DNA from: Gemmata obscuriglobus
GTDB taxonomy: Bacteria > Planctomycetota > Planctomycetia > Gemmatales > Gemmataceae
Assembly (NCBI RefSeq): GCF_008065095.1
Contig: NZ_CP042911.1
Coordinates: 6,330,001-6,362,000, forward strand
Reading direction: 5' to 3'
DNA: 32,000 bases
Part shown: piece by piece, positions 7,254-32,000 of the stretch
Numbering within the stretch: position 1 is the stretch's first letter
How the letters are laid out: each line of letters starts with the position of its first letter
Notes under the pieces: model-generated
Seen by the model: the letters and a program-made list of their open reading frames with translations, nothing else
Told to the model about the DNA's origin: nothing
Database searches by the model: none
Made by a program: the position numbers and the translations under genes

Positions 7254-7279
7254 CGGAACGAAGATCGCTGGAATGCGGG

Positions 7280-7537: not shown

Positions 7538-7582
7538 CTATTGTTGCGTCTAAAATTGAACAGCTATCTGTCTGCTGCCTTT

Positions 7583-8728: not shown

Positions 8729-9009
8729 AACTAGATACTCCTGAAAATCAAACAAGCGCACCTATTGCCTTGAGAGGTGTGAATGGTAACTATCTTTATC
8801 TCGGCTTGCAAACAAATTCTACGAATTTGCCGATCAACAGGATTGCTGGCGGCTTGCGCGAACATCGCAGCCTGCATTTGCAGGCACTCGCTACGCACCG
8901 GCCGGCAACGCGTCGTGAGCTCACCCCTCGAAGCACTCGGCGCCAAGACTGCCCAGGCGAGCAAGGGAAAATCAATTACTCCTCCAAAAAGACAACGTTC
9001 GCGATTGTC

Positions 9010-9474: not shown

Positions 9475-9556
9475 GACTGGCAGAGCCGTAGCCGTTCACA
9501 GGTGAGACATCGGCATATCAGCGAATTGATATGCCGACGCCGTGCGGGAATTCGGA

Positions 9557-10098
9557 TTAGGCCGGGAGCAGTGTCGGTGCCGGCTCGCCATTGCGGTGTG
9601 AGCGGATGGCGTCGGTGAGGAATGCCAAGGCGTTGCGGTTCTGCCGGCGGCACGAGGCGAGGACCGTCAAGATGCGTTCCACGAATCGGCTCCCGCGTTC
9701 GCTGTCGGTCCCGAAGCTGGTCTTGCGCCAGCACACCGCGTGGCGCACTTCGCGCTCGGCCGCGTTGTTGGTCGGTTCCACACCGACGACCCGCGCGAAC
9801 GTCCACAACGACGCCTCGACGGCCAACAGGTCGCCGCAGGTGGCGGCGGTCTTGGCGCAGCTGCACGCGGCCCCGGTCCGCAGGTGCTCGCCGACCTGGT
9901 GACGCAATTCGGGGACGTAGCTGGATCGGAATGTGGACCGCGCGAGGGTTCCGCCCCGAACCCGATACCAGTGCTCGAACAGGGCGTTCGAACTCGCCAA
10001 CAGAGCCGCACCGATCGCCATCCCGGAACCGCCGCGGTCGATCATCGCCTGGAAATCGCGACGCAGGTGCGCCCAGCACAGCTGGCGCTTGTGCTTAG
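9557..10098 (-). pseudogene. IS66-family transposase, C-terminal half (interrupted gene)
   Basis: ...KHKRQLCWAHLRRDFQAMIDR...VEPTNNAAEREVRHAVCWRKTSFGTDSERGSRFVERILTVLASCRRQ. The CWAH..R.F and TNN.AER..R motifs are characteristic of IS66 transposases. Confidence 0.85.
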
Positions 10099-10106
10099 TA
10101 CTACTC

Positions 10107-10149
10107 CGTTAGAGGCACGAATCGTCTCAAGCGATTCGTGCCTCTAACG
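10107..10149 (+). promoter_or_regulatory. Perfect 18-bp hairpin between the left IR and the transposase start codon of the IS701-like element
   Basis: cgttagaggcacgaatcg / loop tctcaag / cgattcgtgcctctaacg. The left arm overlaps the terminal IR, and the right arm ends 4 nt before ATG 10154. Confidence 0.6.
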
Positions 10150-10153
10150 TTGC

Positions 10154-11452: not shown

Positions 11453-11566
11453 CCTTGCCCGGCGTCCGCCGCGCGTTGCAACACCTGCTCCGCCCGTGGG
11501 CCCAGCCGGACTGTGTCCACTGCCGGGCACAGCACTTACATCCGATTCAAATCTAACGGAGTAGTA

Positions 11567-12447
11567 TTAGAAAGGTGCGCGTACACCGGATACCGGTCGG
11601 TCGTGTGGACGGCCGCCGAGCCCGCTCGCAGGTCCTCGAAGGCGCTTCGGCCCCGGGTGTTGCGGATCAGGAAGGCCACCACGAACGTGGTCACGGCCAC
11701 CCACAACCAGGCCCGCTGGCTCCCTTGGGTCCAGCCGGTCTCGTCCACGTTGGCCGGTTGCCCGCGGGCGTAGATCAGGGCGCCCGCGGCCACCGGCTTC
11801 AACGCCTCCGCGGTGCGGTGCTGGAGCTTGCACACCATCGCCGGGCTCAGGGGCAGGGCGAACAGGTCGGCGAACAATTGGCTCGTGCCGCGCTTGCCCA
11901 GGCGGCACGAGCCGGTGAGCATCGCGGCCACCGCCTGAGCCCGGGGCCCATATCCGGTCGCCGCCTCGGCCGGCACCGCCGCCACGGTCGTCGTGCCGCA
12001 GTGCGGGCACCGGAGCCGGTGGCACCGATACTCGGTGACGTGAGGCGTGATGACCGGGATCTCGTGGACCCGATGAACGGCCGGTTGCGGGTCGTCCCCG
12101 GTCAACGGGTGCGCACAGCCCCGGCACGTGGTCGGCTGGAGGGCCCGGATCTCATCGGCCGGCAGCAGGGTGCGTTCCGCCTTGGGGTGCCCCGGTTGGC
12201 CCCCGCGACGCTTGCCCGAGGGCGGCTTGGGCGGGGCCGGTTTCACGTGCGGGGCGTCGGACGAAGGGGGCTTGGACGAGTTGGTGGAGTTCTGGTTGAG
12301 ACGGGCCTCGAGTTCCGCGACGCGGGTGGTGAGCCCGGTCACCTGGGCGGTGAGCTCGGCAATCGTGGCCTCCAGAATGCGGATATACGCCACGACCTGT
12401 GGGGGCAGGTCGCTCGGGAGTTCCGGCGGTTGAGGGACAGGCGTCAT
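11567..12447 (-). pseudogene. IS66-family transposase, N-terminal half (interrupted gene)
   Basis: Coiled-coil leader, then NSTNSSKPPSSD, a Zn-finger-like C..C...CPHCG and the DDE start NVDETGW. The track ORF (to 11536) ends with 10 residues read from the nested IS. Confidence 0.85.
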
Positions 12448-12765
12448 CGCGTCCGTTCAATTACGGAAGACGGGTACTTGAGGCAACCACTCACGGACCT
12501 CATGCAAAAAGCCCTGAAAAACGCAGGGCCAGTCTCCTGTGAACGGTTACGGCAGAGCCAGTCGTCGCGCGCTCATGGCAGCTCCCCAAGGGTAGGTCCA
12601 GTGTCATCACATTGATTCATTGAACGATTGAGCAAGGGCCGACACCGCCAACGTTAAACAATTTGCCGCGTATAGTCAATTAAAAATCAACCGCCCGTTC
12701 ACAATTGTCGATCGCAAGCAAAGCGTGAGCAAGGCCACGGAGACAATTCTGTCACCACGCGAGCG

Positions 12766-13146
12766 TCACTTTGCGGTGATCTTGAAGCGGCCCGCGCCCT
12801 GGACCCGGACTTCCGAGGCCCCGACCGTTTGGACATCGCCACCGTTCCACCAGAGCGTGCCCTGGACCTTCAGCGTGCTGCTGCTCAGGATGCGCCGGCC
12901 CGTGTTCCAGACTTCGAGCTGCGCGTCGGGCGCGATCGTGAGGCTGGCGGCGGCGATCGTGCCGCACCGCCAACTGCCCTTGGCGCCGGTACCCAGCACC
13001 CGCGCCCCGTCCGCCAGGGTGCCTCCCCACTGGTCGAAGGTGGTCGTTACGGTCAGCGTGTGCGTCAGCGCGACGCGGGCCGTGGACGTGCCTCCCAGCT
13101 TCAGCCCTTCCCTTTCCATCATCGCGAAACGGACCATCGGCGTCAC
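12766..13146 (-). CDS. Hypothetical beta-strand-rich protein (Gly/Thr-rich, 'GTL' repeats)
   Basis: Strongly G/C-rich third codon positions in this frame only. Starts are GTG 13146 or ATG 13137, with an in-frame TGA just upstream. I recognise no family. It lies 25 nt from the IS3 left end. Confidence 0.45.
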   Translation of the reverse strand: MTPMVRFAMMEREGLKLGGTSTARVALTHTLTVTTTFDQWGGTLADGARVLGTGAKGSWRCGTIAAASLTIAPDAQLEVWNTGRRILSSSTLKVQGTLWWNGGDVQTVGASEVRVQGAGRFKITAK

Positions 13147-19496: not shown

Positions 19497-20501
19497 TTAC
19501 TCTTCACTCGCGACCACCTCGCCCCCGCTTCGGGTGCCAAGCGCACGCCAAGTCTCGAACGCGATCGAGTCCCGGACGAACCGCACGGAGCCGTCGGCGA
19601 AGCACACGTTCACACCGCCGCTGTGGTAGCTGCGCGCGGCGAGGTGGAATTGGTCCGCGCTCTCGATCATGCAATCTCGACCAGTATAGTTTGGCAAAAA
19701 AGTGTGCGTGTACAGGGCGGTCTGCGGGGCGCCGCGATAGAACTGTAACCCGGTGATGTTCTCGGTTTTCACGGCCGTGTTACAGAACGAAACGAGCGAA
19801 GCGGAAGGGGTTCTGTTATTGGGGTTCGTTGCCGGGTTCCCCACTCCCCACACGGGAAGGGGAACAAGAGTCACGTCGAATCGGTTGTGATCCGGGCTCG
19901 CGCCCCGTACAACTTCGGCGAATAGAACCGTGTTGCTCGTCCCGTCCGTGATTCCGGCCAAAGAGATCCGAAAGGCATTCCCGAACACCCCCGCGAGCGA
20001 TGGGGGCTTGATCACAGTTCCGCGACTGTCCTGCCACCACCCATGCGCGCCCGCATTGCCAAAGTAGTTGCTCCGTCCGGACTGTCCTGCCGTAACACCG
20101 AACGGTGAGTTTTGATCAACGTACATTCCATTTGATGGATCGGCCGGGCAAAGGTAAATCGGCACATCGCCAACGCGGCCAGTGTAATTATCCGGATGTG
20201 AGAAAACGTTCCGCAGCAAATCAAACCGTTGAAACCGCGCGTCCTGTTCGACGTACTGGAGGAGTTGGAGTTGAACGGAGGCGTAGGCAGGTGGACCCGT
20301 GGCCCCGGCTGGGAACGTACCGACCGCTGCTGTAAAGTTGTGCGCAGCCTTGCCCATTTGAGCCAAGTTGCTGGCACACTGGATCCGGGCAGCTGCCCCT
20401 CGCACCTTCTGGACGGCGGGAAGGAGCAGCCCGATGAGGACCGCAATGATCGCGATCACCACCAGTAATTCAATGAGCGTGAACGCGCCACGGGATCTCA
20501 T
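19497..20501 (-). CDS. DUF1559-type protein with prepilin-like N-terminal methylation motif and H-X9-DG motif
   Basis: [34 protein letters not shown] is a type IV pilin-like leader. The C-terminal part has [17 protein letters not shown], which is H-X9-DG. This family is hugely expanded in Planctomycetes. A TTG at 20507 is an alternative start. Confidence 0.9.
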
Positions 20502-20576
20502 AGTCAAGCACCTTTGGCAACCAAAAGCATCGCTCCAACCCTCAACGCATCTCGGCGCCCAATAATTTATTTATTG

Positions 20577-21212
20577 TCACATTGTCGATATGTTTCGCGG
20601 CGTAGCCGTATCTACATTAGAATCCAATGCATTCAGCACGTAATTATGACTTCCACTGTCGAGCGAAGGAAACACCGCGATCCAGAAGCTATTAGACAGG
20701 CTACTGAACAATGATTCAGCAAGAATTGTCCTACCCCCCTCCGCCAGCCAGACAGACACAGCATCGTGTGAGAGCGGACCATAGGCCACGAAGTAATCCC
20801 TTTCATCCGATATGTCGGCATTTGGAGCGGGATACTCGAATTCAATGAACTTTTCGCCCCATAGACCGTTGGACTCAAACTGGACCTGCTTAACCAACTC
20901 AATACCGTTCTGAGCATTGACTTTACTCAAGTACAAAGTGTGGACACCGCTTGAAATCCTCCTCTCATCATCACCAAACAGTGTAAAATAGTACCGATTC
21001 CCGTCGCCATCTGTGTACATCCAGGCTGCAGTACCCGGGATTGCCTTCTGCTCCCTGGGCGGCGCATCGAGCGTCGCGACGATGCCGACGATGTCCGGTT
21101 CGTCTCGAATCCGTACGGCCGATATGAACAAACCCGGCACACGCCTGTCACGCCCTCCGTTGGGCCGATCATCTCGGTTGCATACGGTCGGATGTTTAAC
21201 TTCGATCGGCAT
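20577..21212 (-). CDS. Hypothetical protein, lower-G+C orphan with no recognisable motif
   Basis: A 211-codon ORF in a visibly A/T-richer stretch. AAGGAG (21221-21226) lies 8 nt upstream of the ATG. No signal peptide is apparent. It sits between the kinase and DUF1559 genes on the same strand. Confidence 0.65.
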   Translation of the reverse strand: MPIEVKHPTVCNRDDRPNGGRDRRVPGLFISAVRIRDEPDIVGIVATLDAPPREQKAIPGTAAWMYTDGDGNRYYFTLFGDDERRISSGVHTLYLSKVNAQNGIELVKQVQFESNGLWGEKFIEFEYPAPNADISDERDYFVAYGPLSHDAVSVWLAEGGRTILAESLFSSLSNSFWIAVFPSLDSGSHNYVLNALDSNVDTATPRNISTM

Positions 21213-21244
21213 TCTCGGTTCTCCTTACTACTTGGAACTACTCA

Positions 21245-23374
21245 CTACTTCTTGCCAAGCGGCGTCACCGTGACCCGGTCGAAGAATGCGGACGCCCTCA
21301 CCACATACAGGCCCAATCCACCGCGGGGCACGAAGTTGGGCCTCAGGTCGCGCACGAACGGGTTGTCACGGTGCCGTTCGGCCCTTCGGATGAGGTCTGT
21401 GGCGGTGGATAAGTTCAGATCCCAATCACGAACGGCAATCGAGAACTTCTGGCCGTCCCATTCCGTGATGAGTTCATCGGGGCCGACGGTGACCTCAATG
21501 TTGTGCCATTCGCCTCGTGTCTCGTCTTCCAATTTCGACCCCACCGGCCCGAGCCCTTTCACGTCCAGCGCCGGCGGGACGTCCGGCTCGGAAAGCAACA
21601 CCGGGTTCATCGTCACCTGTTTCGTCGGCACCAGGGTCCGATGCGATCCGTTCGGTCGGACGACCTCCACTTTGGGTGGCGCGGACACGTCGTCGAAGGA
21701 GACCCGGGTCAGCACGTGGATGTCGCTACCTCCACCGGGGTGGGCACACCGCCCGACGTAAAGCCCCACCGAGGGCGCGCCGCCAAGATCACGGGTGTGT
21801 TTCACGCGGGCCGCGACTCGATACTGACTCATTTGCGGATCGGACAGGAGTTCGAGCAGGGCGACCGATTTCGTTTCGACCTCAAAGTACCCGTCCAGTT
21901 TGGTGTTCGTTCTGCTTGCGGTCTGCCCCATTTTCCACCGGAACCACCTCGGCTTGCCTGTTTCGCCAATCAGGGTGACCGCCTGTCCCGGCGCCGCCCG
22001 CGCCACTTCGGCCTCGATTTCTTTGCGAGTCTCGTCGGTTCCTTCCTCTTGCGGCTGCTCACCCGTGGGCGAGCCCAGGTAAAGCGCGCCCCCGACCGCA
22101 CCGCCAAAGGTAAGAACCACCGCGCCCGCCGCGACCGACCCGCGACGCGCGTTCCGTCGTACCCACCGCATTGCGCGCCGGGCGCGCGTCAGCGGGCGGG
22201 CCTCGGTTGATTCGCCCCGGAGCAGCCGGCCGAGGTCGTCGGCCAGCGCCTGAGCCGACTGGTACCGCCAACTGGGGGGCGCCTCCAAGCACTTCAGACA
22301 AACGGCCTCCAGGTCGGGCGAGATCTGCCTGCGGAGCCGGGACGGCGGAATCACGTTCCCCTCTCGGACCAGGGCGAGGATTGCGTCTTTCGAGTCGGCC
22401 ATGAACGGCGGCACCCCGGTGAGCGTCTCGTACAAGATCGCACCGAGCGCGTACACGTCCGTCCGCTCGCCAATCTCGCTCGTGCGCCCCGCCGCCTGCT
22501 CCGGGGCCATGTAGCTCGCCGTACCCATCACCGCGCCGGTTTCGGTCAGTTGGGCCCCGCTCTCGTCGAGCAGTTTCACCAGACCGAAGTCAGCAATCTT
22601 CATGATGCCGTCGGACCCAATCAGTACGTTCGCCGGCTTGAGATCGCGGTGCACAACTTTTTGCTCGTGGGCGTACGCAACGGCCCCCGCCAGGGTTTGG
22701 ACCTTCTCGGCCGCATCCAGTGGCGCGAGCGAGCCGCCCGCTTTCAGCTTGTCCGCCAGGCTCCCCCCCTCCACCAGTTCCATCGTGAAATAGGGCCGGC
22801 CGTTGTGGTCATCGAAGTGGTGGAACTGAACCACGTTCGGATGCTGCAGCCGCGCCAGGACTTTACCCTCGTTGCAGAACCGCGTGAGCCCATCCGGCCC
22901 CACGGCGAGTATGTCCCGGATTGTCTTCAAAGCGACGACTTGTTTCAGCGGTCGCCGTTCCGCGCGGTACACCACTCCCATCCCGCCACTCCCGATTTCC
23001 TCCAGCAGTGTGTAGCGCCCGAACGTCGTTCCAACCCGAATCTCCCCGGATGACCGGCCCGCCTCCCGATCTTTCGGTTCCGCGTTCAGCGGGTCGGAAC
23101 CGCCCGCGATCATCCCGCCCGCAGCGAGCAGCTCCGAGCCGCCCGTCGATTCGAGCCTCTCGCGCAACCAGGCGTCGAACCCGTTCTTCGCCGCGCCTTC
23201 AATCTCGGCTAGCGCGGCGAGGCAGGCCTCACAAGTCGAGAGGTGGTGGTCGACCGCCTCCAGGTCCGGCTCCGCCAACCGGCCGCTGCTGAACGCGGCC
23301 AACGTTTCCCGATCGGGGCATCGGTCGGGGTCAGCGGGTGTGGCGACTAAAAACATCGCGCGCCTCCGAGTCAA
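21245..23374 (-). CDS. Ser/Thr protein kinase with an N-terminal ZAS-like zinc-finger (anti-sigma-like) segment, one TM helix and an extracytoplasmic C-terminal domain
   Basis: Kinase motifs are present: GSGGMGVVY, ALK, HRDLKPANVLI, DFG, SYMAPE. The N-terminus has HLSTCEAC, which is H-x3-C-x2-C. A hydrophobic segment VAAGAVVLTFGGAVGGALYL is followed by ~270 aa of beta-rich sequence. TTG 23374 overlaps the sigma gene stop; ATG 23356 is an alternative start. Confidence 0.9.
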   Translation of the reverse strand: MTRRRAMFLVATPADPDRCPDRETLAAFSSGRLAEPDLEAVDHHLSTCEACLAALAEIEGAAKNGFDAWLRERLESTGGSELLAAGGMIAGGSDPLNAEPKDREAGRSSGEIRVGTTFGRYTLLEEIGSGGMGVVYRAERRPLKQVVALKTIRDILAVGPDGLTRFCNEGKVLARLQHPNVVQFHHFDDHNGRPYFTMELVEGGSLADKLKAGGSLAPLDAAEKVQTLAGAVAYAHEQKVVHRDLKPANVLIGSDGIMKIADFGLVKLLDESGAQLTETGAVMGTASYMAPEQAAGRTSEIGERTDVYALGAILYETLTGVPPFMADSKDAILALVREGNVIPPSRLRRQISPDLEAVCLKCLEAPPSWRYQSAQALADDLGRLLRGESTEARPLTRARRAMRWVRRNARRGSVAAGAVVLTFGGAVGGALYLGSPTGEQPQEEGTDETRKEIEAEVARAAPGQAVTLIGETGKPRWFRWKMGQTASRTNTKLDGYFEVETKSVALLELLSDPQMSQYRVAARVKHTRDLGGAPSVGLYVGRCAHPGGGSDIHVLTRVSFDDVSAPPKVEVVRPNGSHRTLVPTKQVTMNPVLLSEPDVPPALDVKGLGPVGSKLEDETRGEWHNIEVTVGPDELITEWDGQKFSIAVRDWDLNLSTATDLIRRAERHRDNPFVRDLRPNFVPRGGLGLYVVRASAFFDRVTVTPLGKK

Positions 23375-24033
23375 CCCGCGGCGTCTGATCCCGTGGCAGG
23401 GCGCGGGGCTCCGTCCTCGGGCAGGTCCACCAGTTCGCCGAACTCCTCCAGAAGGCGGTGGAGCACTCGGGACTTCGCGAGGTACACTGAATGCACCCGG
23501 ATACCCAATTCCTGTGCCACATCTTCCGCCCGCTGCCTGTCGATCATGTACCGCCAGAACGCCTGCCGGGTGCGGTCCTTGAACCCGGCCAGGGTCAGCT
23601 CGACCGCCTGACGCAGCACGATCCGCTCTTCGACCGCGTCAGCATCCGCGCCCCCGCCTCGCTCGGGCCGCTCGGGAACGGAGAGGAGCTCTCGCTGCGC
23701 GTCGCTCCCGCCGACGGCCGGGATCTGGCGGGCGTTGCGCCGCCGATGGTCATGGGCCTTGTTCCGGGTGATCATCCGCAGCCAGCCACGCAGCGTGTCT
23801 CCCGGTTGGTCGTGACGGAACCGGTCCATCGCCCGGTCAGCGGCCAGGAACACATCCTGGGACACGTCCTGTGCGTCGTGAGGCCGCAGGCCGTCCTGCT
23901 GGCACCAGTACAGGACCAGGGGCCGGTACAGCGCCTCGAACCGCTCCCACGCGCCGGGGGTCCGCGCGCGCACCCCGGCGAGCAGCGTGGACGAGGTCGT
24001 CTGCCCACTGACGCGAACGCGCCTGTCTATCAC
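23371..24033 (-). CDS. ECF-type RNA polymerase sigma factor (sigma-70 regions 2 and 4)
   Basis: Region 2: YRPLVLYWC...DAQDVSQDVFL...LRGWLRMITRNKAHDHRR. Region 4: RQAFWRYMIDRQRAEDVAQELGIRVHSVYLAKSRVLHRL. GTG start with AGAGG upstream. Confidence 0.9.
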   Translation of the reverse strand: MIDRRVRVSGQTTSSTLLAGVRARTPGAWERFEALYRPLVLYWCQQDGLRPHDAQDVSQDVFLAADRAMDRFRHDQPGDTLRGWLRMITRNKAHDHRRRNARQIPAVGGSDAQRELLSVPERPERGGGADADAVEERIVLRQAVELTLAGFKDRTRQAFWRYMIDRQRAEDVAQELGIRVHSVYLAKSRVLHRLLEEFGELVDLPEDGAPRPATGSDAAG

Positions 24034-24301
24034 GGCTGCCTCTGAAATCGGATATCAGACGGATGAATGGCTGAATTATTTCCTCCGCGCGGCTTTGAAC
24101 GCAAGTGAAAAATTTGCGCAACCGCAGAATCGTATGGGCACAGGCCACTCGGACCGTTTCACGGTTCGGAATTCGGAGGCCGGGTGATAGACCTCGTGTT
24201 CAGGGAAGTGAGCACCCTACCGGCCAGCCCCGCCGCAGGTCCACGCGGCTACCGCGCGGCCGCACCCTGGCGGGCGGTGCCCCTTCTCACAGGTGATCCC
24301 C

Positions 24302-26890
24302 ATGGCCGTGTCCAAGCTCGTCGATTCAGGGCAGCCGTTCGTGAACGAGCCGGACATCCAGCGCACGACCTTCGCGGTCGATGCGCCGGGGCGGTTCTTC
24401 TGCAACACGTGGGACGAGGCCGTCAGCGCGCAGCAGGGCCGTCCGTTCGATGTCGTGATCGTCGGCTCGGGCATGTACGGCGGGTACCTGGCGGCCAAGC
24501 TGTACGAGTTCGGCGGGGACCTGCCCGAGGCCGACCGCCCCCGGGTGCTGGTGCTGGAGTCCGGCCCGTTCCTGCTCGCCGAACACATCCAGAACCTGAC
24601 CGGGATGGGGGACGCGTTTGACCTGCCCGCCCGCGACCTGATCGACGAGGCGACGCAGGGGCGTGGGGACAAGATCGACCCCGGCCGGCTGTTCGTCCGG
24701 CACCACCGGTGCGTCGGCGGCAAGTCCCCGTTCTGGGGCGGCTGGGCCCCGCGGCTGACCGAGGAGGACCTGGCGCAGTGGCCGGCCGAGGTCCGGGAGT
24801 ACCTGCTCCAGGCCGGCCGGCCCGACGGGTACGAGTACGTCGAGCGGGAAATCGGGGCGCGGCCGACGGCCGACTTCATGAGCGGCAAGCTGCTCGACGC
24901 CCTGCTCGCGCGCGTGAGGGAGTCGCTCCCCGGCGACCCGCGCCTGGCCTTCGTGGATGACGCCCCCATCGCCGTGCTCGGCCAGTCGCCGGGGTCCGGC
25001 CTGTTCAGCATGGACAAGTTCAGCAGCCTGGCCCTGCTGCTCTCGGCGGTCCGGGACGACATCGGCCGGGCGAAGAACAAGGGCGGGGACGCGGCCCGGC
25101 GGCTGTTCCTGGTACCAAACGCCGAGGTGCTGCGGCTGGAAACGCAGAGCGGGGCGGTCCGGCAGGTGGTCGCCGCGCTGCGCGACTTCGCCGAGCCGGA
25201 GAACCGGAGCCGGGCGCGAGTGGTCCGGTTGGACGTGCAGCCCGGCGCGGTCGTGGTTCTGGCCGGGAACACCGTGAACTCCACCCGGCTGGCCCTCAAC
25301 TCGTTCCCCCGACCGCGGCAGATGTCGCCGACCGGGGAGCTGATGGGCCGCAACCTGATGGCCCACGTCCGGAGCAACTTCATCTGGAAGGTCGACCGGA
25401 AGAAGCTGATCGGCGACACCGTGCTGGGCACCAACCTCCAGACGGCGGCGCTCCACGTCCAGGGCGCGGCGAACACCGCGAAGGGCCGCGGGCGGTTCCA
25501 CTTCCAGTTCTACGCCGCCCCGAACATGGACACCAACGCATTCCCGGGCGCTTCGAACAACCCGGAGGAGTTCCTCTATCGAATGGTCCCGAGCGTCGAG
25601 GAGTACGAGCGGATGCTCAAGGCCCAGGAGGGGCTGGGCACCCGCATCGTAGTCGGCATCCGCACGTGCGGGGAAACGTTTGGGGACAAAACCACTCCGG
25701 TCGACACGAGCAACGCGGTGAGCTGGATGAACGTCAGTCCGTTCGGCGGCGCCGGGGACGACGTGTACGTCGAGGGCGGGCGGGAGGTGCGCGTCCCGAA
25801 GGCGTTCGCCAACCTGGTCGAGACGGCGGCCGACCGGCAGGTCCGGGACGCCCAGGACGGGGCCGCGTTCGCGCTCATCGAGCGGCTGACCGGGCTGCCG
25901 ACCGGTGCGGCCGGGAGCCGCGACCCGGCCGCACCGGTCGAGCTCATCGCCGAGAACAAGGACCGGATCGGGACCACGTTCCACGACTCCGGCACCCTCT
26001 GGCTCGGTGCCGACCCGGCCGCGTCGGTGACCGACGTCAACGGCCGGTTCCACCACGTCGCCAACGCCGCGTGCGTGGACCAGGCCATCTTCCCGACGGT
26101 CGGGTCCGCCAACCCGGTGCCCACCGGCTTGGCCCTCGCCCGGAAGGCCGCCCGGGCCATCATCGACCGGCACCGGCCGGCCCCCCCGCCGGCCGGGGGC
26201 GAAGCGGGGTTCGAGCCCCTCTACAAGGGCGACTTCGCGGCGGACGGGTGGAAGTACGCCGGGCCGCGGTTCGACGGCCAGGTGCCGTTCTTCGACGTCC
26301 AGGTCGGCGGGCCGGTCCTCGGGGCCGGGGTCGGCAGCCCGTTCTTTGACAGCGTGCTCGGGGTCCTCTGGTTCTCGAAGCGAACGTTCCGGGATTTCGT
26401 CCTTCGGCTGGAGTGGCGGACGTTCGACGGGGCCGCCAACGCCGGGGTGCTTCTACGGGCGCCCGAGCCGGCCCAACTCGACGCGGACCACTTCTACAAC
26501 TCGGCGGTCGAGGTGCAGATCGACGAGCGCGGGTTCGCCTTCGATGCGACCAATCCGGGGAACAGCTTTTACGGAAGTCCGCTCCACCGAACGGGCGCCG
26601 TGTACGGACTGTTCCCCGCCCGGTCGTGGGCGGCCAAGCGGGTGAACTCCCGGGTCCCGGGTCGGGACGCGTACTGGAACCTGTTCGAGATCACCCTTCG
26701 GGGGCCGAACGTCGAAGTGCGGCTGAACGGCCAGATCGTGTCGGGCGGGACGCTCCAGAACCCGCTGCCGGCCGGGGCCGCGAACGCCCCGAACACCGAC
26801 CCGGCCCGCAAGCGGTCGGACGGGTTCCTCGGCCTCCAGTGCCACACCGAAGTCGTTCAGTTCCGCAACATCCGGGTGAAAACCCTGTAA
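24302..26890 (+). CDS. GMC-family FAD oxidoreductase fused to a C-terminal DUF1080 (3-keto-disaccharide hydrolase-like) domain
   Basis: The N-terminal part has FDVVIVGSGMYGG, a Rossmann GxGxxG motif. The GMC C-terminal signature is HDSGTLWLGAD...VTDVNGRFHHVANAACVDQAIFPTVGSANPVPT. From about nt 26200: GWKY...FRDFVLRLEWR...NAGVLLRAP...EVQIDE...TGAVYGL...WNLFEITLRG..VEVRLNG...GFLGLQCH...VQFRNIRVK, the DUF1080 pattern. AGGTGA lies before ATG 24302; GTG 24293 is an alternative start. Confidence 0.85.
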   Translation: MAVSKLVDSGQPFVNEPDIQRTTFAVDAPGRFFCNTWDEAVSAQQGRPFDVVIVGSGMYGGYLAAKLYEFGGDLPEADRPRVLVLESGPFLLAEHIQNLTGMGDAFDLPARDLIDEATQGRGDKIDPGRLFVRHHRCVGGKSPFWGGWAPRLTEEDLAQWPAEVREYLLQAGRPDGYEYVEREIGARPTADFMSGKLLDALLARVRESLPGDPRLAFVDDAPIAVLGQSPGSGLFSMDKFSSLALLLSAVRDDIGRAKNKGGDAARRLFLVPNAEVLRLETQSGAVRQVVAALRDFAEPENRSRARVVRLDVQPGAVVVLAGNTVNSTRLALNSFPRPRQMSPTGELMGRNLMAHVRSNFIWKVDRKKLIGDTVLGTNLQTAALHVQGAANTAKGRGRFHFQFYAAPNMDTNAFPGASNNPEEFLYRMVPSVEEYERMLKAQEGLGTRIVVGIRTCGETFGDKTTPVDTSNAVSWMNVSPFGGAGDDVYVEGGREVRVPKAFANLVETAADRQVRDAQDGAAFALIERLTGLPTGAAGSRDPAAPVELIAENKDRIGTTFHDSGTLWLGADPAASVTDVNGRFHHVANAACVDQAIFPTVGSANPVPTGLALARKAARAIIDRHRPAPPPAGGEAGFEPLYKGDFAADGWKYAGPRFDGQVPFFDVQVGGPVLGAGVGSPFFDSVLGVLWFSKRTFRDFVLRLEWRTFDGAANAGVLLRAPEPAQLDADHFYNSAVEVQIDERGFAFDATNPGNSFYGSPLHRTGAVYGLFPARSWAAKRVNSRVPGRDAYWNLFEITLRGPNVEVRLNGQIVSGGTLQNPLPAGAANAPNTDPARKRSDGFLGLQCHTEVVQFRNIRVKTL

Positions 26891-26916
26891 CGTCCGTCCC
26901 CGCGAGGAGACCCAGC

Positions 26917-28794
26917 ATGCAGACCCGATCCCGGGCCCAGTGGGCCGCCGTTGCATCCTTTGTCGCGGCATCCCTGGTTGCCGGCGGCGCCATCGACGGT
27001 CAAGACGAGAAGAAGGACGACAAGCCCGTGAGCCCGGGCGCCGCCGCGCCGTCGGCGGTCCGGCGGGTCGCGGTGACGCCCCTGAAGGAGCGCAGCCCGA
27101 CCGGCGGCCCGGTGATGGAAGTGCGGCTCCCGGGCGCCGAAAAGCGCCTGGTCCGAGGGTCGGTAACGCAGGACATCAAAATTCCCGAGAGAGGCGTCCC
27201 CGCGGGCGAACCGACGCAGCGAGTGTCGATCGGCCCGGACGAATTGTACCAGGACCAGAAGCGCTACGAAGAGGACCTCCTGAAGGTGGGCGAGTTCGTC
27301 GACTTCTCGGACCGCAGCCGGCACAAACTCGCCCCCAAGGACGCCAAACAGTGGCGGGCGGTCAAAACGCCGGTCGGTCGGGAGACGCAACTGCCGCCGT
27401 ATCTCGGCTCCCCGGTCCTGTGCGAGGAGGACATCCAGACGCTCAGCGAGCGGTGCCTGATGATCCGGGACCCGGCCGTCGTTGACGACCGGCGGGCCAA
27501 GGGCACCGGTGCCTGGTCCTTCGGTCACCTGATGACCGAGATGGCCAACGAGAAGGCGACCGGCATCAAGCCGTCCGATTTCGTGCTCCGCTGGCTTGAG
27601 CACTGGGAGCGGGATCAGAACGTCAACGGGTGCCGGATCGACAACCGCCGGGACGGCATCCGGGCGCTCGTCATCGACCCGTGGCAGGAGGCCAGCGGCG
27701 GCCCGGGCAAGCCGCTGGACCTGGCCAAGGCCCCGTTCCGGCTGATGGCCATCATCAACCGCCTCGACCTGAGCAGTAACGCGGTTCTCGGGGTCGACCG
27801 GATCGGGGACGGCGGGGCCGGTGAGGCACGCCTCATGTTCTGCGCCCTCGACACGCGAAAAGAGAAAGACCTCGACAAGGCACCGCCAGCGCTGTTCACC
27901 GTCATCTTCGAGTACGGGATCAAGCGGAAAAGCTTGCAGGGTGTCAAGGACTGGGCGGAAAGCTGGTACGAGCTGCGGCTCCACGACCCGAAGACGGACG
28001 CGTACAAGGCACGCCTGGAGCGGCTCACCGAGGAATTCGTTCGGGCCGGGGCAGACCCGGAGTGCCCGCCGAACCGCAGCGCACTGGCTCAGCTGCGGAC
28101 GAATGAAATCGCACTGGACCTCGTGGCGAGTGAGTTGGGGGTGGAACTCGACCGGATCGACGGGCTCCCCCGGCCGCTGTGGGAGCTCCGCGAGTTCGTC
28201 GTCAACACCCACGACGACGGGTTCCTATACCAGGTCACGGTCAAGCAAACGCCCCGGCTCGCCCTCCGGGGCGGGGCGGCGAACCCGACCGGTGGGCAGC
28301 GGCTCGCCGAGTACGTGAACGTCCCGGCGAACCTGGACGCCATCCTGAACGAGCGCCACCGGCTGCCCGTGCAGTTCCCCGCGGGTCGGCCGTTCGTGGA
28401 CGGGGCCTCGATCACCCCGTTGGACTTCTTCTGGGATGCGCCGGGGATCAAAGACCCCAAGGCCCGGCACTTGCTGTCACTTGCGACGTGCAGCGGGTGC
28501 CACGCGGGCGAGGCGTTCCCCCGGGTGAATAAGCCCGGCGCGACGTTCACGCACCTGTTCCCCCTCACCCGGGTCGAGGGCCGGGCGGCCGAAGTGTCCC
28601 CGTTCCTGAGCGGCAAGGGGGCCGACGGGAAGGAGTTCGCCTTGCCGGACCCGGCCGGCGCGAAGGGGCCGGACGGGAAGGTGATCGAGCGGAAGTTCGC
28701 CGACCTGGAGCGGCGGGCGTACTTCCTGCGCGACTTCGTGCGGTACTTCCTCTACTACCAGCTCAACCGCGTCCCGATCCAGAACGTCCACTGA
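26917..28794 (+). CDS. Secreted/anchored protein of unknown function with a single C-terminal CxxCH motif
   Basis: GAGGAG lies 7 nt before the ATG. The N-terminal hydrophobic segment is WAAVASFVAASLVAGGAI. CSGCH is at nt 28489-28503. The track ORF from 26413 is an out-of-gene upstream extension overlapping the previous CDS. Confidence 0.8.
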   Translation: MQTRSRAQWAAVASFVAASLVAGGAIDGQDEKKDDKPVSPGAAAPSAVRRVAVTPLKERSPTGGPVMEVRLPGAEKRLVRGSVTQDIKIPERGVPAGEPTQRVSIGPDELYQDQKRYEEDLLKVGEFVDFSDRSRHKLAPKDAKQWRAVKTPVGRETQLPPYLGSPVLCEEDIQTLSERCLMIRDPAVVDDRRAKGTGAWSFGHLMTEMANEKATGIKPSDFVLRWLEHWERDQNVNGCRIDNRRDGIRALVIDPWQEASGGPGKPLDLAKAPFRLMAIINRLDLSSNAVLGVDRIGDGGAGEARLMFCALDTRKEKDLDKAPPALFTVIFEYGIKRKSLQGVKDWAESWYELRLHDPKTDAYKARLERLTEEFVRAGADPECPPNRSALAQLRTNEIALDLVASELGVELDRIDGLPRPLWELREFVVNTHDDGFLYQVTVKQTPRLALRGGAANPTGGQRLAEYVNVPANLDAILNERHRLPVQFPAGRPFVDGASITPLDFFWDAPGIKDPKARHLLSLATCSGCHAGEAFPRVNKPGATFTHLFPLTRVEGRAAEVSPFLSGKGADGKEFALPDPAGAKGPDGKVIERKFADLERRAYFLRDFVRYFLYYQLNRVPIQNVH

Positions 28795-28983
28795 CACGAC
28801 CGGCGCCGGCGGGGCCGGGCGCCCACGGCCCGCCGCGCGTCGGCTTCCGGGCGCCGACCACCCGGTCCTTACCGAGACAAGTAGCCCGCCGTGCCCGCCG
28901 GGCCGACGGGCACTAGATGGACATGCGGCGCGGCCCTCACCCGCCCCTCCCCAGCCCCCTCAGTCACTCGCTAAAGGGTTCTC

Positions 28984-30663
28984 ATGCCACCCGAACAAGT
29001 CGACCAGCACCCCCGTCCGGCGACAGTCCAACAGGTCCAGCCGGCGAAACCTCGCGCGGCTCATACGGTCGTCAAGGCTGAGGCGCCCGTCTGCACCCCG
29101 TCGCAGGTTACGGCGACCGGCCCGAACGGGGACGAGCAGGACTTTCCGACCTACCTCGGCAACTACCACAAGGGGTTGGAACATGATCAGTACGGGGTAG
29201 TGGTCAAGGAAGTCTATGATAATTACTTTCTCGCCGCCGTCGGCACCACCACTCCGGCCCCGGACGCGTTTACCAACATCCCCCTCGCCCTCAAACGGAA
29301 GCTGACCAACCCCCAAGCCGGGTTGGCCACGGACCTGGAAGGTCCGGACCCGAAGACACTGGCCATCCGGTCCGCCCCGAAGGTCAACAGCCCCGAGGCC
29401 GCCGCCGAGGCCGTCGAACTGTACTGGATGTCCCTGCTCCGCGACGTCCCGTTCTCCCAGTTCGGCGACACCGACACGCACCCGCTGATCGCGACCGCGC
29501 TCACAGATCTCTCCCGGCTCGCCGCGTTCACCGGCCCGAAGGTGGGCGGCAAGGTGACCCCCGAGACGCTGTTCCGCGGGTGCGCCGCCGGGTCGAACCG
29601 CGGCCCGCTCGTGTCCCAGTTCCTCCTCCTCGATGTCCCCTACGGGTCGCTCACGATCAGCCATCGGCAGCGAACGGTTGTCGGCGGTCACGAGTACCTA
29701 ACGGACCCGGTCACCTGGCTCGCGGTCCAGGACGGGAGCCCGGCCGCCCCGCCGGATCTGTTCGACCCGACCCCGCGGTACATCCGGAACATGCGGGACC
29801 TGGGCCAGTACGTCCACGTCGACGCGCTGTACGAGGCGTACTTAAACGCCTGCCTGATCCTGCTCGGGATGAACGCCCCGGTGGACAAGGGGAACCCGTA
29901 CTACGCGAACGCCCCCTACGGGCAACCGAGCTGCCTGCCGAGCGGCAACCAGTCGAAAACGCAGATCGGGTTCGGGACGTTCGGGGGGCCGCACATCCTC
30001 AGTTTGGTCTGCGAAGTGGCCACCCGCGCGCTGAAGGCCGTCTGGTTCCAGAAGTGGTTCGTCCACCGGCGCCTCCGCCCCGAAGCGTACGGGGGGCTGG
30101 TCCACTTCCGGAAGACCGGCGCGCGCCAGGACTTCCCGGTCCACGACGACGTCCTCAACTCGCCCGCGCTCGACGAGGTGTTCGCACGGCACGGGACGTA
30201 CCTGCTCCCCATGCAATTTCCCGAGGGAAGCCCGACGCACCCGGCGTACGGGGCCGGGCACGCGACGGTGGCCGGGGCGTGCGTCACCATCCTGAAGGCC
30301 TTCTTCGACGAGGATTACCCGATCCCCCACCCGGTGGTGCCGAACGACGACGGAACGGCCTTGGTCCCGTACACGGGTCCGGACGCCCACCGGCTGACCG
30401 TCGGCGGGGAGCTGGACAAGGTCGCGGCCAACATCGCGATCGGGCGGAACATGGCCGGGGTTCACTGGCGGAGCGACTACCGGGAGTCGGTTCTGCTGGG
30501 CCAGACCGTGGCGCTGTGCGTCCTCCACCGGCAGGCCCGCGATTACCACGAGGACTACTCGTTCACCGTCACGCTGTACGACGGAACGCGGGTGGTCGTT
30601 GACAAGAGCGGGGTGAAGACCGCGGACGGCAAGCCCTACGCGCTGCCGGGCTGCGCGCACTGA
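28984..30663 (+). CDS. Vanadium-dependent haloperoxidase-like / PAP2-superfamily protein
   Basis: Three PAP2/haloperoxidase-type motifs occur in order: KWFVHRRLRP (~30052), PTHPAYGAGHAT (~30235) and GRNMAGVHWRSD (~30441). The N-terminal 'NYHKGLEHD' phrase is common in bacterial members as I recall them. No signal peptide is seen. Confidence 0.8.
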   Translation: MPPEQVDQHPRPATVQQVQPAKPRAAHTVVKAEAPVCTPSQVTATGPNGDEQDFPTYLGNYHKGLEHDQYGVVVKEVYDNYFLAAVGTTTPAPDAFTNIPLALKRKLTNPQAGLATDLEGPDPKTLAIRSAPKVNSPEAAAEAVELYWMSLLRDVPFSQFGDTDTHPLIATALTDLSRLAAFTGPKVGGKVTPETLFRGCAAGSNRGPLVSQFLLLDVPYGSLTISHRQRTVVGGHEYLTDPVTWLAVQDGSPAAPPDLFDPTPRYIRNMRDLGQYVHVDALYEAYLNACLILLGMNAPVDKGNPYYANAPYGQPSCLPSGNQSKTQIGFGTFGGPHILSLVCEVATRALKAVWFQKWFVHRRLRPEAYGGLVHFRKTGARQDFPVHDDVLNSPALDEVFARHGTYLLPMQFPEGSPTHPAYGAGHATVAGACVTILKAFFDEDYPIPHPVVPNDDGTALVPYTGPDAHRLTVGGELDKVAANIAIGRNMAGVHWRSDYRESVLLGQTVALCVLHRQARDYHEDYSFTVTLYDGTRVVVDKSGVKTADGKPYALPGCAH

Positions 30664-30681
30664 CCCGGCGGCGCCGGGTTC

Positions 30682-30718
30682 GACCGCGGGACGGCGGCGC
30701 TCACGCCGTCCCGCGGTC
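30682..30718 (+). terminator. Perfect 14-bp GC hairpin between the haloperoxidase-like gene and the small ORF
   Basis: gaccgcgggacggc / 9-nt loop / gccgtcccgcggtc, 19 nt after the stop at 30663. No U-tract, so it could be a terminator, attenuator or RNA-stability element. Confidence 0.4.
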
Positions 30719-30775
30719 ACGCATCACGGTTCCCGACCAGCCGGCCCGAGCCGAACGAACCAAGGGGGAGGCACA

Positions 30776-31138
30776 ATGACCCGTTACGAGCGCGTCCAGC
30801 AGATCCTCGACCAGTCCGTCGGAGGCCCGGGCGTCGACATCGGGGTCCACGGGGCGTTCTGGCGCAACCGGACGCGCGACCAGTTCGTCACGTTCCGGTT
30901 CCGAGGTCTTGACCTCGTGGCGGTGGGGGACGGGGCGGAGTCGAACCTTGTGAAGGCGTTGCGGGGGGAGGCGCCTTTCGGTGCCGACCTCCCGAACCCG
31001 CCGCCTGGGGCCCGGTTCAGCCGAATGCCCGCGGGACTCGACCCCGTCCCCGATCCGGACATCGCGTTCATTCAGCGGTGGATCGACGCCGGCTGTCCGG
31101 AGGACCAGTTCGCCTCCGGCCGACTGGAACACCAATAA
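30776..31138 (+). CDS. Small hypothetical protein (120 aa)
   Basis: GGGGGAGG lies 4 nt upstream of the ATG. G/C-rich third codon positions. Conserved-looking HGAFW...RMP...IQRWIDAGCP. I cannot name a family. Confidence 0.7.
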   Translation: MTRYERVQQILDQSVGGPGVDIGVHGAFWRNRTRDQFVTFRFRGLDLVAVGDGAESNLVKALRGEAPFGADLPNPPPGARFSRMPAGLDPVPDPDIAFIQRWIDAGCPEDQFASGRLEHQ

Positions 31139-31151
31139 AGAGGACGCTCTG

Positions 31152-32000
31152 GTGCCACACGGATTCATCACCTGGCGACCGGCCGGGCACGCGGGTAACG
31201 CGCGCGTCGCCGCCCCGCCGGCGTTCGCCCTGGCGGGAGCGGCGGGGCCGCAGTTGTGCCCGGCCCCGCCGGAGCCCCGGCCGGAAGCCGCTCAACCGCT
31301 GGCGGCTCGGGACGAGGCCGTCTTCCTCCTTCACACCGCGGCCGAGATCGAGCACGCGCTGCTCGTTCAGTACCTCTACGCCGCGTTCTCGTTCGGCGAG
31401 CCGGCGGCCCGCCTGCGCGCGAACGGGGGCGACCTCGAGCCGGAACCGCACGCCAAAGTGTTCGGCCCCGGCGGGTGGGACCGGACGCTCCTCGACATCG
31501 CGGTGGAGGAAATGTTCCACCTGATGACCGTCCAGAACGTGCTCCGGGCGATCGGCGGCCCGCTCAACCTGGAACGCGAGGACATGCCGTTCCGCAGCGA
31601 GTTCTACCCGTTCCCCTTTACCCTGGAGCCGGTGACCAAGGCGTCCCTGGCCCGGTACGTGGCCGCCGAAATGCCCGCCCGGCCCGACCCGGCTGCGTAC
31701 CCACTCCTTCCAGAGATTTTGGCCCGCGCGCGGGTCGCCAACCACCAGGGGGAGATCAACCGGGTCGGCGCGCTTTACGCCCGCATCCTCGAGCTCCTCG
31801 GGCGCGTCCCGTCGGATGCGTTCCGACCGGAGACCGCAAACGGGTACCAGGCGGACCCGGCGGAATGGGGCGGGAGCGACGCCACGGCCCTACCGGCCAA
31901 CAAGCGCGCCCGCATTCTGGCGCGGTTCGGGGGCACGCCGTCCGAGACCAAAAACAAGGTTCGTGCCGTACTCTCCCTGATCGCGGAGCAGGGCGAAGGG
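31152..32000 (+). CDS. Ferritin-like domain protein (PF12902-like), 3'-partial at the window end
   Basis: Not in the ORF track because no stop falls in the window. My translation from GTG 31152 (AGAGGA 7 nt upstream) gives ...FLLHTAAEIEHALLVQYLYAAFSF...LLDIAVEEMFHLMTVQNVLRAIGGPLNLEREDMPF...YPFPFTLEP..KASLARYVAAEMP. This is the EIEH...EEM.HL pattern of the VioB-N-terminal-type ferritin-like family. Open through base 32000. Confidence 0.75.
   Translation, partial: MPHGFITWRPAGHAGNARVAAPPAFALAGAAGPQLCPAPPEPRPEAAQPLAARDEAVFLLHTAAEIEHALLVQYLYAAFSFGEPAARLRANGGDLEPEPHAKVFGPGGWDRTLLDIAVEEMFHLMTVQNVLRAIGGPLNLEREDMPFRSEFYPFPFTLEPVTKASLARYVAAEMPARPDPAAYPLLPEILARARVANHQGEINRVGALYARILELLGRVPSDAFRPETANGYQADPAEWGGSDATALPANKRARILARFGGTPSETKNKVRAVLSLIAEQGEG

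Follow-up and report, generated by a model that had tools for sequence, protein, structure and literature searches.

A possible peroxide-coupled gene set in Gemmata obscuriglobus: a GMC::DUF1080 fusion near a vanadium haloperoxidase homolog and a ferritin-like protein

Closest described systems

The lignocellulose-decay couples of fungi pair a GMC flavoenzyme that produces H2O2 (pyranose 2-oxidase or aryl-alcohol oxidase) with a peroxidase of the class II or DyP type that consumes it, and a bacterial pyranose oxidase-manganese peroxidase couple (POx-MnP) has been described in vitro (PMC6581175). We analyzed a 32,000-nt stretch of the Gemmata obscuriglobus genome (hereafter the window), whose genes were found by listing and translating open reading frames (ORFs). 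Five co-directional genes on its plus strand, at positions 24302 to 32000 (Table 1), encode a fusion of a GMC flavoenzyme with a DUF1080 (PF06439) domain, an exported CxxCH protein (CxxCH625), a homolog of vanadium-dependent haloperoxidases (VHPO), a 120-residue protein and a PF12902 ferritin-like protein. It is possible, at odds somewhat short of even (a probability of roughly 0.45), that the oxidase, the peroxidase and the di-metal ferritin-like protein form a peroxide-coupled set, with three of the five products tied together through H2O2. The pairing of a GMC peroxide source with a peroxide consumer would then be the same as in fungi. In contrast to the fungal and POx-MnP couples, however, the partners are paired here by adjacency of bacterial genes, the GMC enzyme is fused to DUF1080, and three interchangeable peroxidase families occupy the second position. 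The core proteins also differ from those of the fungal couples in that the fusion, the VHPO homolog and the ferritin-like protein all lack a signal peptide, and the ferritin-like protein represents an additional recurrent partner.

The DUF1080 half of the fusion has its closest described counterparts in glycoside catabolism. DUF1080 proteins are 3-keto-glucoside lyases or hydratases, and in the BT2156-2160 system of Bacteroides and the AL1-5 system of Alistipes, oxidation of the sugar is followed by DUF1080-catalyzed elimination (bioRxiv 10.1101/2024.03.25.586180). Similarly, glycoside 3-oxidase systems with an eliminase or deglycosidase combine the oxidation with a DUF1080 enzyme or a lyase of the sugar-phosphate-isomerase fold (PMC10646112, PMC10628242). 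Bacterial GMC glycoside 3-oxidases reduce O2 to H2O2 (PMC10646112), and oxidation at C3 enables beta-elimination of the aglycone (PMC10628242). The Gemmata fusion would join both activities, and its DUF1080 domain has a Q-x-H motif near the C terminus that resembles, at the motif level, sugar-binding residues of BT2. Whereas the gut systems use an NAD-bound Gfo/Idh/MocA enzyme and separate periplasmic proteins, Gemmata has a divergent GMC domain within one cytoplasmic chain.

The VHPO homolog resembles the vanadium bromoperoxidases of algae and cyanobacteria (Corallina 1QHB, 1UP8 and 7QVW; Ascophyllum 1QI9; Acaryochloris 5LPC) over nearly its full length, and the Lys, two Arg, three His and Gly residues of their active site are preserved. 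It differs from them by an Ala in place of the vanadate-contacting Ser, a replacement found in 30 of 80 homologs, and by its planctomycete host. The ferritin-like protein shares PF12902 with VioB, RebD and StaD. These enzymes work directly after a flavin amino-acid oxidase that produces H2O2 (VioA or RebO). In contrast, the Gemmata protein is 714 residues long and carries cytochrome-like C-terminal domains, and no gene for a VioA/RebO-type oxidase is present in the window or in L001, a 22-kb G. obscuriglobus contig identified by exact protein match from which the genes beyond the window end were read. The database name of the protein, “oxygen-dependent dichlorochromopyrrolate synthase,” was rejected since the VioB model TIGR04492 gives it 38 bits, far from the cut-off of 1250, and over 130 residues only. 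Rubrerythrin, a peroxide reductase made of a ferritin-like di-iron domain and a small electron-transfer domain, offers an analogy only, in that an ExxH bundle is combined with a redox-like domain; the two proteins have no sequence relationship beyond the superfamily, and the domain appended in Gemmata is cytochrome-c-like and devoid of CxxC.

Each of the enzyme families involved is known, and fungi provide classical cases of coupled oxidases and peroxidases. In the literature searched, we found no paper linking DUF1080, GMC and a peroxidase, and none linking Gemmata to a haloperoxidase. A search for vanadium haloperoxidases and Planctomycetes returned nothing relevant by title or abstract, and PF12902 turned up only in a survey of LodA. 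The gene-level link in bacteria of GMC::DUF1080 and PF12902 with interchangeable peroxidases was not found in that literature, nor was the relationship of the 120-residue domain described below. Bacterial VHPOs and DyP enzymes mostly have no known physiological source of H2O2, and a linked flavoenzyme would supply one. If the link is true, GMC::DUF1080 proteins could be re-read as candidate single-chain oxidative glycoside-cleaving enzymes, and PF12902, known only from VioB/RebD-type enzymes, would gain a context as a partner of H2O2-producing oxidases and peroxidases. The value of the finding rests on the neighborhood pattern.

Peroxidase genes near the fusion and ferritin-like genes

A peroxidase-family gene lies within three genes of the GMC gene in six of the nine loci sampled, one of the nine being devoid of DUF1080. 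The gene codes for a VHPO homolog in two of the six, a DyP-like protein in three and an animal-heme-peroxidase-like protein (An_peroxidase) in one. Close homologs of the ferritin-like gene likewise have a peroxidase-family gene within three genes in three of five loci. We judge these co-locations to be far above chance, a judgement and not a formal statistic, because peroxidase-family genes represent a tiny fraction of a genome; the chance expectation, as a rough estimate that was not computed, is well under 1% per locus. About 100 genes in six comparison neighborhoods, those of three CxxCH625 homologs and of loci L097, L101 and L103, include no VHPO, DyP or An_peroxidase gene; the latter three loci are already inside the denominators of nine and five.

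The partner GMC genes code for proteins 35 to 59% identical to the Gemmata enzyme and are not orthologous to its gene. Together with the unrelated folds of the peroxidases, this argues that similar sets were assembled independently, and one peroxidase family replacing another while the partners stay the same is a classical sign that functions are coupled. The initial annotation had grouped the oxidase, the peroxidase and the ferritin-like protein with the CxxCH protein. What finds comparative support in this grouping is the association of the first three, with peroxidases of three unrelated families adjoining in several phyla. It is not orthologous synteny, however, and the CxxCH protein is excluded from it.

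The arrangements vary between lineages. On a planctomycete-type contig (L093), a ferritin-like gene, whose product has 55% identity and is fused to a BNR propeller, follows an An_peroxidase gene after 39 nt; next come a gene for a 665-residue protein, a GMC::DUF1080 gene (39% identity over the full length), two small genes and another ferritin-like gene. In Planctomycetaceae (L094/L095), the An_peroxidase gene is located 44 nt upstream of that of a 1244-residue ferritin-like protein. The fusion gene of a Nostoc chromosome (L096) precedes a 94-codon gene and a gene for a DyP-type protein with a LysM domain, and a DyP-like gene is found immediately upstream of GMC::DUF1080 in Polyangiaceae (L099/L100). 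A Nostoc plasmid (L104) carries, in order, genes for an M4 peptidase, emfourin, a hypothetical protein, a DyP-like protein and GMC::DUF1080. The DyP-like proteins of these last three settings are 45 to 47% identical to one another.

Plasmid p5 of Azospirillum argentinense (NZ_CP032326.1, positions 3500 to 12500; L111) harbors a mosaic in which these gene families are present in decayed form. A 132-codon ORF is what is left of the N-terminal part of a VHPO (40% identity to residues 6 to 79 of the Gemmata protein, E = 4e-14). Directly adjoining it is a remnant from the last third of a GMC::DUF1080 gene (47% identity), which is followed by an M4 peptidase gene. A gene for a 954-residue protein with a DUF8225-like end lies on the same strand, and on the other strand there are a LodA-like gene, an IS3 element and an incomplete gene for a radical SAM protein. 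This plasmid thus contains a second, decayed junction between VHPO and GMC::DUF1080 genes.

Genes for a protealysin-type M4 protease and its inhibitor emfourin, located just past the window end in Gemmata, recur as well and accompany the set. Protealysin has been described as an intracellular protease that emfourin inhibits (PMC9505478). The Gemmata pair (14364 to 15905 of L001) has counterparts of 71 and 60% identity on the Nostoc plasmid (2570 to 4231 of L104), the Azospirillum plasmid retains the M4 gene, and the pair is found again in a metagenome-assembled genome of Thermodesulfobacteriota (3815 to 9860 of L076), where M4 peptidase, emfourin, an LTXXQ protein, two hypothetical proteins and a VHPO homolog are encoded on one strand. 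The best homologs of the Gemmata GMC (59%) and M4 (71%) proteins, and many of those of the VHPO, are found in Nostocales, which suggests gene flow between cyanobacteria and Gemmata.

Component proteins, proposed chemistry and competing explanations

The domain assignment of the fusion held up, with GMC_oxred_C (PF05199) scoring 48 bits against a cut-off of 24.6 and PF06439 79.8 bits against 26.8. In an alignment of 24 family members, the dinucleotide-binding motif GSGMYGG is nearly invariant, and H561, H584/H585 and N604 of the GMC part are invariant; these residues make up a His/Asn catalytic pair like that of pyranose and cholesterol oxidases. A putative N-terminal FAD domain, which Pfam GMC_oxred_N does not match, is indicated by the MftG models of NCBIfam (residues 50 to 164, 3e-7) and by comparison of the family profile with FAD-dependent glucose dehydrogenase (FAD-GDH; residues 2 to 133, 1e-10). 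Searched against the PDB, the family profile matched the DUF1080 structures 3IMM, 4JQT, 8V31, 8TDA and 8RR2 (1e-17 to 1e-12) and, weakly, GMC enzymes, namely FAD-GDH (6A2U and 8HDD, about 1e-10), fructose dehydrogenase (FDH; 7W2J), HMFO and bacterial pyranose oxidases (about 1e-7). The DUF1080 part contains an invariant Q846-x-H848 motif near the C terminus and an invariant stretch with E737 and D741. Sugar- and metal-binding residues of BT2-type enzymes are Glu103, Lys245, Gln273 and His275 (bioRxiv 10.1101/2024.03.25.586180); the fit of the Gemmata motifs to Glu103, Gln273 and His275 is at the motif level only and not from a residue-by-residue alignment, and no equivalent of Lys245 was identified.

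The fusion architecture occurs in more than 800 scored homologs, with 55 to 59% identity in Nostocales. A proteobacterial variant of about 955 residues carries an inserted Rieske [2Fe-2S] domain (P0289-P0343; L097, positions 10001 to 12871). The automatic database name of the fusion is “family 16 glycoside hydrolase.” We propose instead that it is a glycoside oxidase joined to a 3-keto-glycoside lyase or hydratase, and a putative source of H2O2.

The haloperoxidase call proved far stronger than first assumed, with phmmer E-values of about 1e-97 at best to PDB entries for crystallized vanadium bromoperoxidases from Corallina, Acaryochloris and Ascophyllum (7QVW, 8e-98; 1QHB, 2e-97; 5LPC, 2e-88; 1QI9, 4e-77; also 1UP8). 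A precomputed match to PF22778 (VCPO_2nd) is listed for the protein. Of the eight residues of the vanadate site, the protein has seven (K357, R365, H419, G425, H426, R488 and H494). The eighth, a Ser, is replaced by Ala424; this position is Ser in 50 of the 80 homologs and Ala in the others, all other site positions being invariant. Ala424 is a natural variant that marks an “AGH” subgroup of bacterial VHPO homologs. Many of the closest homologs (52 to 59% identity) belong to Nostocales. When the neighbors of VHPO genes were clustered, the recurrent ones were lineage-specific families and a Tll0287-type sensor kinase. Six loci of different phyla (L009, L012, L014, L017, L034 and L036) encode, within 6 kb of the VHPO homolog, a sensor histidine kinase that contains a Tll0287-like domain, and an Fer4_5 protein and an FHA-FNR-type reductase are the recurrent neighbors in Nostocales.

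The ferritin-like call was likewise borne out, with PF12902 matching at 94 to 102 bits. The 714-residue protein consists of a four-helix-bundle di-metal domain, a helical region and one or more C-terminal cytochrome-like domains. Among 66 sequences, E65-x-x-H68 and E120-x-x-H123 are conserved, as are E67, E173, E282 and H292. An AlphaFold2 model has a mean confidence score (pLDDT) of 84.6, and the best Foldseek match is the uncharacterized protein 3HL1 (probability 1.0), followed by ferritins and bacterioferritins. The C-terminal part has no Pfam match even at E ≤ 10.

The 120-residue protein had been described as a small orphan. It is not one, as it represents a stand-alone copy of the domain at residues 506 to 603 of the adjacent ferritin-like protein (55% identity, E = 2e-31; 13684 to 13977 of L001). 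An exhaustive HMMER search found the domain in 410 representative clusters, where it is stand-alone, N-terminal, internal or C-terminal in hosts of up to 2100 residues. His25, Met84-Pro85, Trp102 and Cys107 are conserved. No Pfam model exists for it and no Pfam match was obtained even at E ≤ 10; a comparison with cytochrome FoxE (5MAB) gave a weak match (E = 0.006). The pattern is reminiscent of cytochrome c domains of class I or planctomycete type that have lost CxxC, a resemblance with the weak FoxE match as its only support. In L090-92, this domain (70% identity) begins the gene that directly precedes the ferritin-like gene; it also begins a 910-codon gene of L109 and L110, which is annotated as ferritin-like-domain-containing and matches the domain and the BNR-propeller part of the L093 protein.

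PF12902 proteins are found in other oxidase and dehydrogenase contexts. In some homologs, the domain is fused to LodA_N or to GSDH sugar-dehydrogenase domains. Shorter ferritin-like relatives are encoded in a conserved five-gene cassette, together with a protein of about 460 residues, a protein of about 250 to 290 residues (weak LodA_C, sometimes PDZ), a radical SAM protein and a LodB/tryptophan-halogenase-like flavoprotein. The carriers are alpha- and betaproteobacterial and actinobacterial replicons (Bradyrhizobium, Mycetohabitans, Novosphingobium, Embleya, Rhizobium) and one metagenomic contig (L090-92); the cassette lies at 4856 to 12243 of L090, 6851 to 13288 of L105 and 6872 to 13685 of L106, and is also present in L107, L108, L109 and L110. 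It may be an undescribed maturation system for a quinoprotein-type oxidase. A survey of LodA-type quinoprotein oxidases, which produce H2O2, reported PF12902 genes beside fungal lodA/lodB (PMC4417212). The oxidase fusions, the LodA-like cassette and the peroxidase neighbors together argue that the ferritin-like protein is repeatedly a companion of oxidases and peroxidases. A metagenome scan with the ferritin-like protein yielded two fragmentary loci only, and nothing was found in scans of viral contigs with the GMC and ferritin alignments.

The exported CxxCH625 protein has a signal-peptide-like N terminus, as read from the sequence, and a single c-type heme motif whose C525, C528 and H529 are invariant in 77 homologs. 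The family is widespread, with 315 homologs scored in Planctomycetota, Acidobacteriota, Pseudomonadota and Methylomirabilota, and has many invariant residues. It matches no Pfam or NCBIfam family and no Pfam cytochrome domain, the C-terminal part giving no Pfam match even at E ≤ 10, and similarity of the family profile to cytochrome c555 is confined to the surroundings of the motif (9e-7). When an AlphaFold2 model (pLDDT 87; predicted template modeling score, pTM, 0.88) was compared with the PDB, no structure matched the whole chain with an E-value below 1.1; the model is compatible with what may be a new heme-protein fold. As a member of a module, CxxCH625 was rejected. The other cluster genes are absent from the neighborhoods of three of three homologs, the hidden Markov model of the family found no relative among the neighbor proteins of any other locus examined, and none of the other eight GMC loci, seven of which have the DUF1080 fusion, has a relative. 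The protein is thus probably a lineage-specific passenger in the cluster.

The chemistry that we infer from the computed anatomy, conserved residues and recurrent neighborhoods would run as follows. The GMC domain would oxidize a hydroxyl of a sugar or glycoside, probably at C3, and pass the electrons to O2, generating H2O2; after the oxidation of a glycoside, the same chain would eliminate the aglycone. The VHPO would use the H2O2 of the fusion for halide oxidation, a role taken over in other lineages by a DyP-like or An_peroxidase-like enzyme. In the weakest step, the ferritin-like protein, with its two ExxH motifs and its cytochrome-like domain, might act on peroxide or on the oxidized product, the 120-residue protein being a free copy of that domain. 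A broader proposal sees an undescribed guild shared across phyla, comprising GMC::DUF1080 as a one-chain glycoside oxidase-lyase, an interchangeable peroxidase that receives its H2O2, a PF12902 protein with the CxxC-less cytochrome-like domain and frequently protealysin and emfourin, which would couple oxidative deglycosylation to a peroxidative conversion of the aglycone (halogenation in Gemmata) inside the cell; we regard it as doubtful.

Several observations weigh against a peroxide-coupled set. Counted over the VHPO loci, the link is rare, at about 2 of 86. We collected 80 VHPO loci (51 to 63% identity, one genome per species, mostly with 10-kb flanks) from Actinomycetota, Nostocales, Thermoanaerobaculia, Planctomycetota and others. 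A tblastn search of them with 13 proteins of the Gemmata locus found no gene for GMC::DUF1080, CxxCH625 or the 120-residue domain, and gave one weak ferritin-like match and one M4 peptidase; two further plasmid loci bearing VHPO genes also have no partner genes. The samples of nine GMC and five ferritin-like loci are small and were not drawn systematically. Three GMC loci (L097, L101 and L112) have no peroxidase gene, and none is found beside the Rieske-containing Rhodoferax gene (L097), the Dehalococcoidia gene or the DUF1080-less Bradyrhizobium relative, the last of which lies near a gene of the sugar-phosphate-isomerase family, the other known family of 3-keto-glycoside lyases. The DyP-like and An_peroxidase matches score low, at 22 to 63 bits, and both superfamilies include members that are not peroxidases. 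The GMC domain is very divergent: the Pfam scan gave no match to GMC_oxred_N, the PDB matches range from 1e-10 to 1e-7, and neither substrate nor O2 reactivity is readable from the sequence. The Rieske insert suggests that some of the family, at least, act as dehydrogenases and not as oxidases. Finally, core proteins devoid of signal peptides would place hypohalous acid in the cytoplasm, which is awkward, and the 189-nt and 112-nt gaps and the hairpin suggest separate transcripts.

Some of these features would also be expected if independently acquired accessory genes, each with its own promoter and unrelated role, had come to lie side by side on one strand of a variable region. Such a chance juxtaposition, in which case the region would be an island of horizontally acquired redox genes, agrees with the lack of orthologous synteny for the VHPO and CxxCH625 genes, with the long gaps and the strong hairpin, and with an IS66 transposase gene elsewhere in the window. 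Moreover, horizontal acquisition is suggested by the best homologs of the GMC (59%), VHPO (54 to 63%) and M4 (71%) proteins, which belong to other phyla and for the most part to Nostocales. We nevertheless consider it unlikely, as it leaves unaccounted for that rare peroxidase genes lie so close to the GMC and ferritin-like genes at the frequencies given above, that the peroxidases concerned are not homologous, and that a decayed junction exists in Azospirillum. The same neighborhoods would be produced if the peroxidase and the ferritin-like protein served to remove the H2O2 released as a by-product of sugar or glycoside catabolism, with no purpose in halogenation or product modification. Mn catalases and rubrerythrin peroxidases belong to the ferritin-like di-metal proteins, AhpC/Redoxin-type genes lie near the ferritin-like gene in L094, and all the proteins appear cytoplasmic. 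However, a VHPO turns H2O2 into a more reactive oxidant and would be a poor detoxifier where catalases or peroxiredoxins are simpler, and the partner in the loci seen is always of a substrate-oxidizing type (VHPO, DyP-like or An_peroxidase-like) and never a catalase. Self-protection thus appears rather improbable.

The two remaining explanations give the CxxCH protein a part. In the initial annotation, the five genes were suggested to form a self-contained module for halogenation or another small-molecule pathway that may be under the control of the divergent sigma factor and kinase genes. Co-directionality, the logic of an oxidase followed by a haloperoxidase, and the presence of that gene pair speak for it. 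However, no locus has at least three of the five orthologs together, which refutes the strict five-gene module; the CxxCH625 and VHPO genes are not syntenic with the rest elsewhere. Nor was any biosynthetic core enzyme, halogenation substrate gene or transporter found within about 10 kb, where polyketide synthase, nonribosomal peptide synthetase, terpene, prenyltransferase, tailoring and export genes are all absent on either side; the Pfam content there comprises a DUF1559 protein, hypothetical proteins, the kinase, the sigma factor, the M4 protease, emfourin and a His-phosphatase. As related clusters have no such regulatory pair beside them and the anatomy points to several transcripts, we regard this module as very improbable. 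Alternatively, the GMC enzyme might be a dehydrogenase that passes its electrons to the adjacent CxxCH protein and makes no H2O2. The 26-nt distance between the two genes, the similarity of the GMC N-terminal region to the catalytic subunits of FAD-GDH (6A2U and 8HDD; E of about 1e-10) and FDH (7W2J), and the Rieske-containing relatives, which argue for protein electron acceptors in part of the family, would fit. Yet the three-subunit FAD-GDH, FDH and glucoside 3-dehydrogenase have a Tat-exported small subunit and a multi-heme cytochrome, whereas the Gemmata fusion has no Tat motif and the locus no gene for such a hitch-hiker subunit. CxxCH625 has one heme motif and no similarity to the three-heme subunits, its export would place it in a different compartment from the fusion, and the two genes do not accompany each other in the other eight GMC loci or in three of three CxxCH625 loci. 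Electron transfer from the fusion to CxxCH625 is therefore highly unlikely.

Layout and expression of the locus

Listing and translation of ORFs reproduced the arrangement of the five genes, with successive gaps of 26, 189, 112 and 13 nt, and the 268 nt that separate the first of them from the divergent gene for an extracytoplasmic function (ECF) sigma factor (Table 1). The Shine-Dalgarno-like motifs could also be read as described: in gene order they are AGGTGA, GAGGAG, AAAGGG, AAGGGGGAGG and AGAGGA, of which AAAGGG, in front of the VHPO gene, is weak. In contig L001, the co-directional run goes on past the window end by at least four genes, with gaps of 26 to 54 nt among the genes downstream of the ferritin-like gene. 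The 625- and 714-residue proteins are 100% identical to proteins listed for G. obscuriglobus in public databases.

Table 1. Features of the Gemmata obscuriglobus locus, in window coordinates
Feature	Position	Strand	Remarks
Ser/Thr protein kinase, 703-709 aa	21245..23374	-	Pfam Pkinase, E = 8e-52; N-terminal zf-HC2-like segment (weak zf-HC2)
ECF-type sigma-70 factor, 220 aa	23371..24033	-	Pfam Sigma70_r2; NCBIfam TIGR02937 (sigma70-ECF); divergent from the cluster
Divergent intergenic region, 268 nt	24034..24301	.	Core richer in A+T
GMC::DUF1080 (PF06439) fusion, 862 aa	24302..26890	+	Pfam GMC_oxred_C and 3keto-disac_hyd
Exported CxxCH protein (CxxCH625), 625 aa	26917..28794	+	Motif C525-x-x-C528-H529
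VHPO homolog, bromoperoxidase type, 559 aa	28984..30663	+	PDB homology
Perfect 15-bp hairpin	30682..30718	+	19 nt after the VHPO stop codon
120-aa protein, CxxC-less cytochrome-c-like domain	30776..31138	+	55% identity to a domain in the adjacent ferritin-like protein
PF12902 ferritin-like protein, first 283 codons of 714 aa	31152..32000	+	Gene leaves the window
Past the window end, in order: M4 (thermolysin/protealysin-type) peptidase, emfourin, short His_Phos_1 protein, 193-aa protein			Read from contig L001

The hairpin after the VHPO gene is real: its G+C-rich stem has a predicted energy of -38.1 kcal/mol (z = -5.6 against shuffled sequences). It has no U tract, and a scan for consensus terminators, which requires a T run, does not call it. 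It is a candidate transcript end or stabilizer. Because the 189-nt and 112-nt gaps are long and the hairpin following the VHPO gene is strong, the layout suggests at least three transcription units, i.e., the GMC and CxxCH genes, the VHPO gene alone, and the 120-codon and ferritin-like genes, probably with those downstream. The divergent intergenic region is presumed to hold the promoters for both directions. It has no match to the sigma-70 consensus, and consensus scans for promoters and terminators are uninformative in this DNA of 70% G+C. An Rfam search of positions 20000 to 32000 gave no riboswitch or other RNA match.

Control of the cluster by the ECF sigma factor and the kinase, as suggested in the initial annotation, was not borne out: the suggestion rests on adjacency in the Gemmata genome, and no ECF/kinase pair was found beside the related clusters of L093, L096, L099 and L104. 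The kinase gene, called with 703 codons in L001, is directly downstream of the sigma factor gene; we regard it as context only. The idea that the kinase shares a ligand with the fusion was rejected, as its C-terminal 239 residues showed no significant similarity to DUF1080. PADLOC defense-system models matched none of 10 proteins.

Elsewhere in the window, a gene for an IS66-family transposase lies on the minus strand at 11536-12447, and a stretch of about 1 kb (8001-9000) has a G+C content of 0.52 compared with about 0.66. Both features point to a variable region upstream of the cluster, and the region as a whole is a patchwork of accessory genes in G. obscuriglobus.

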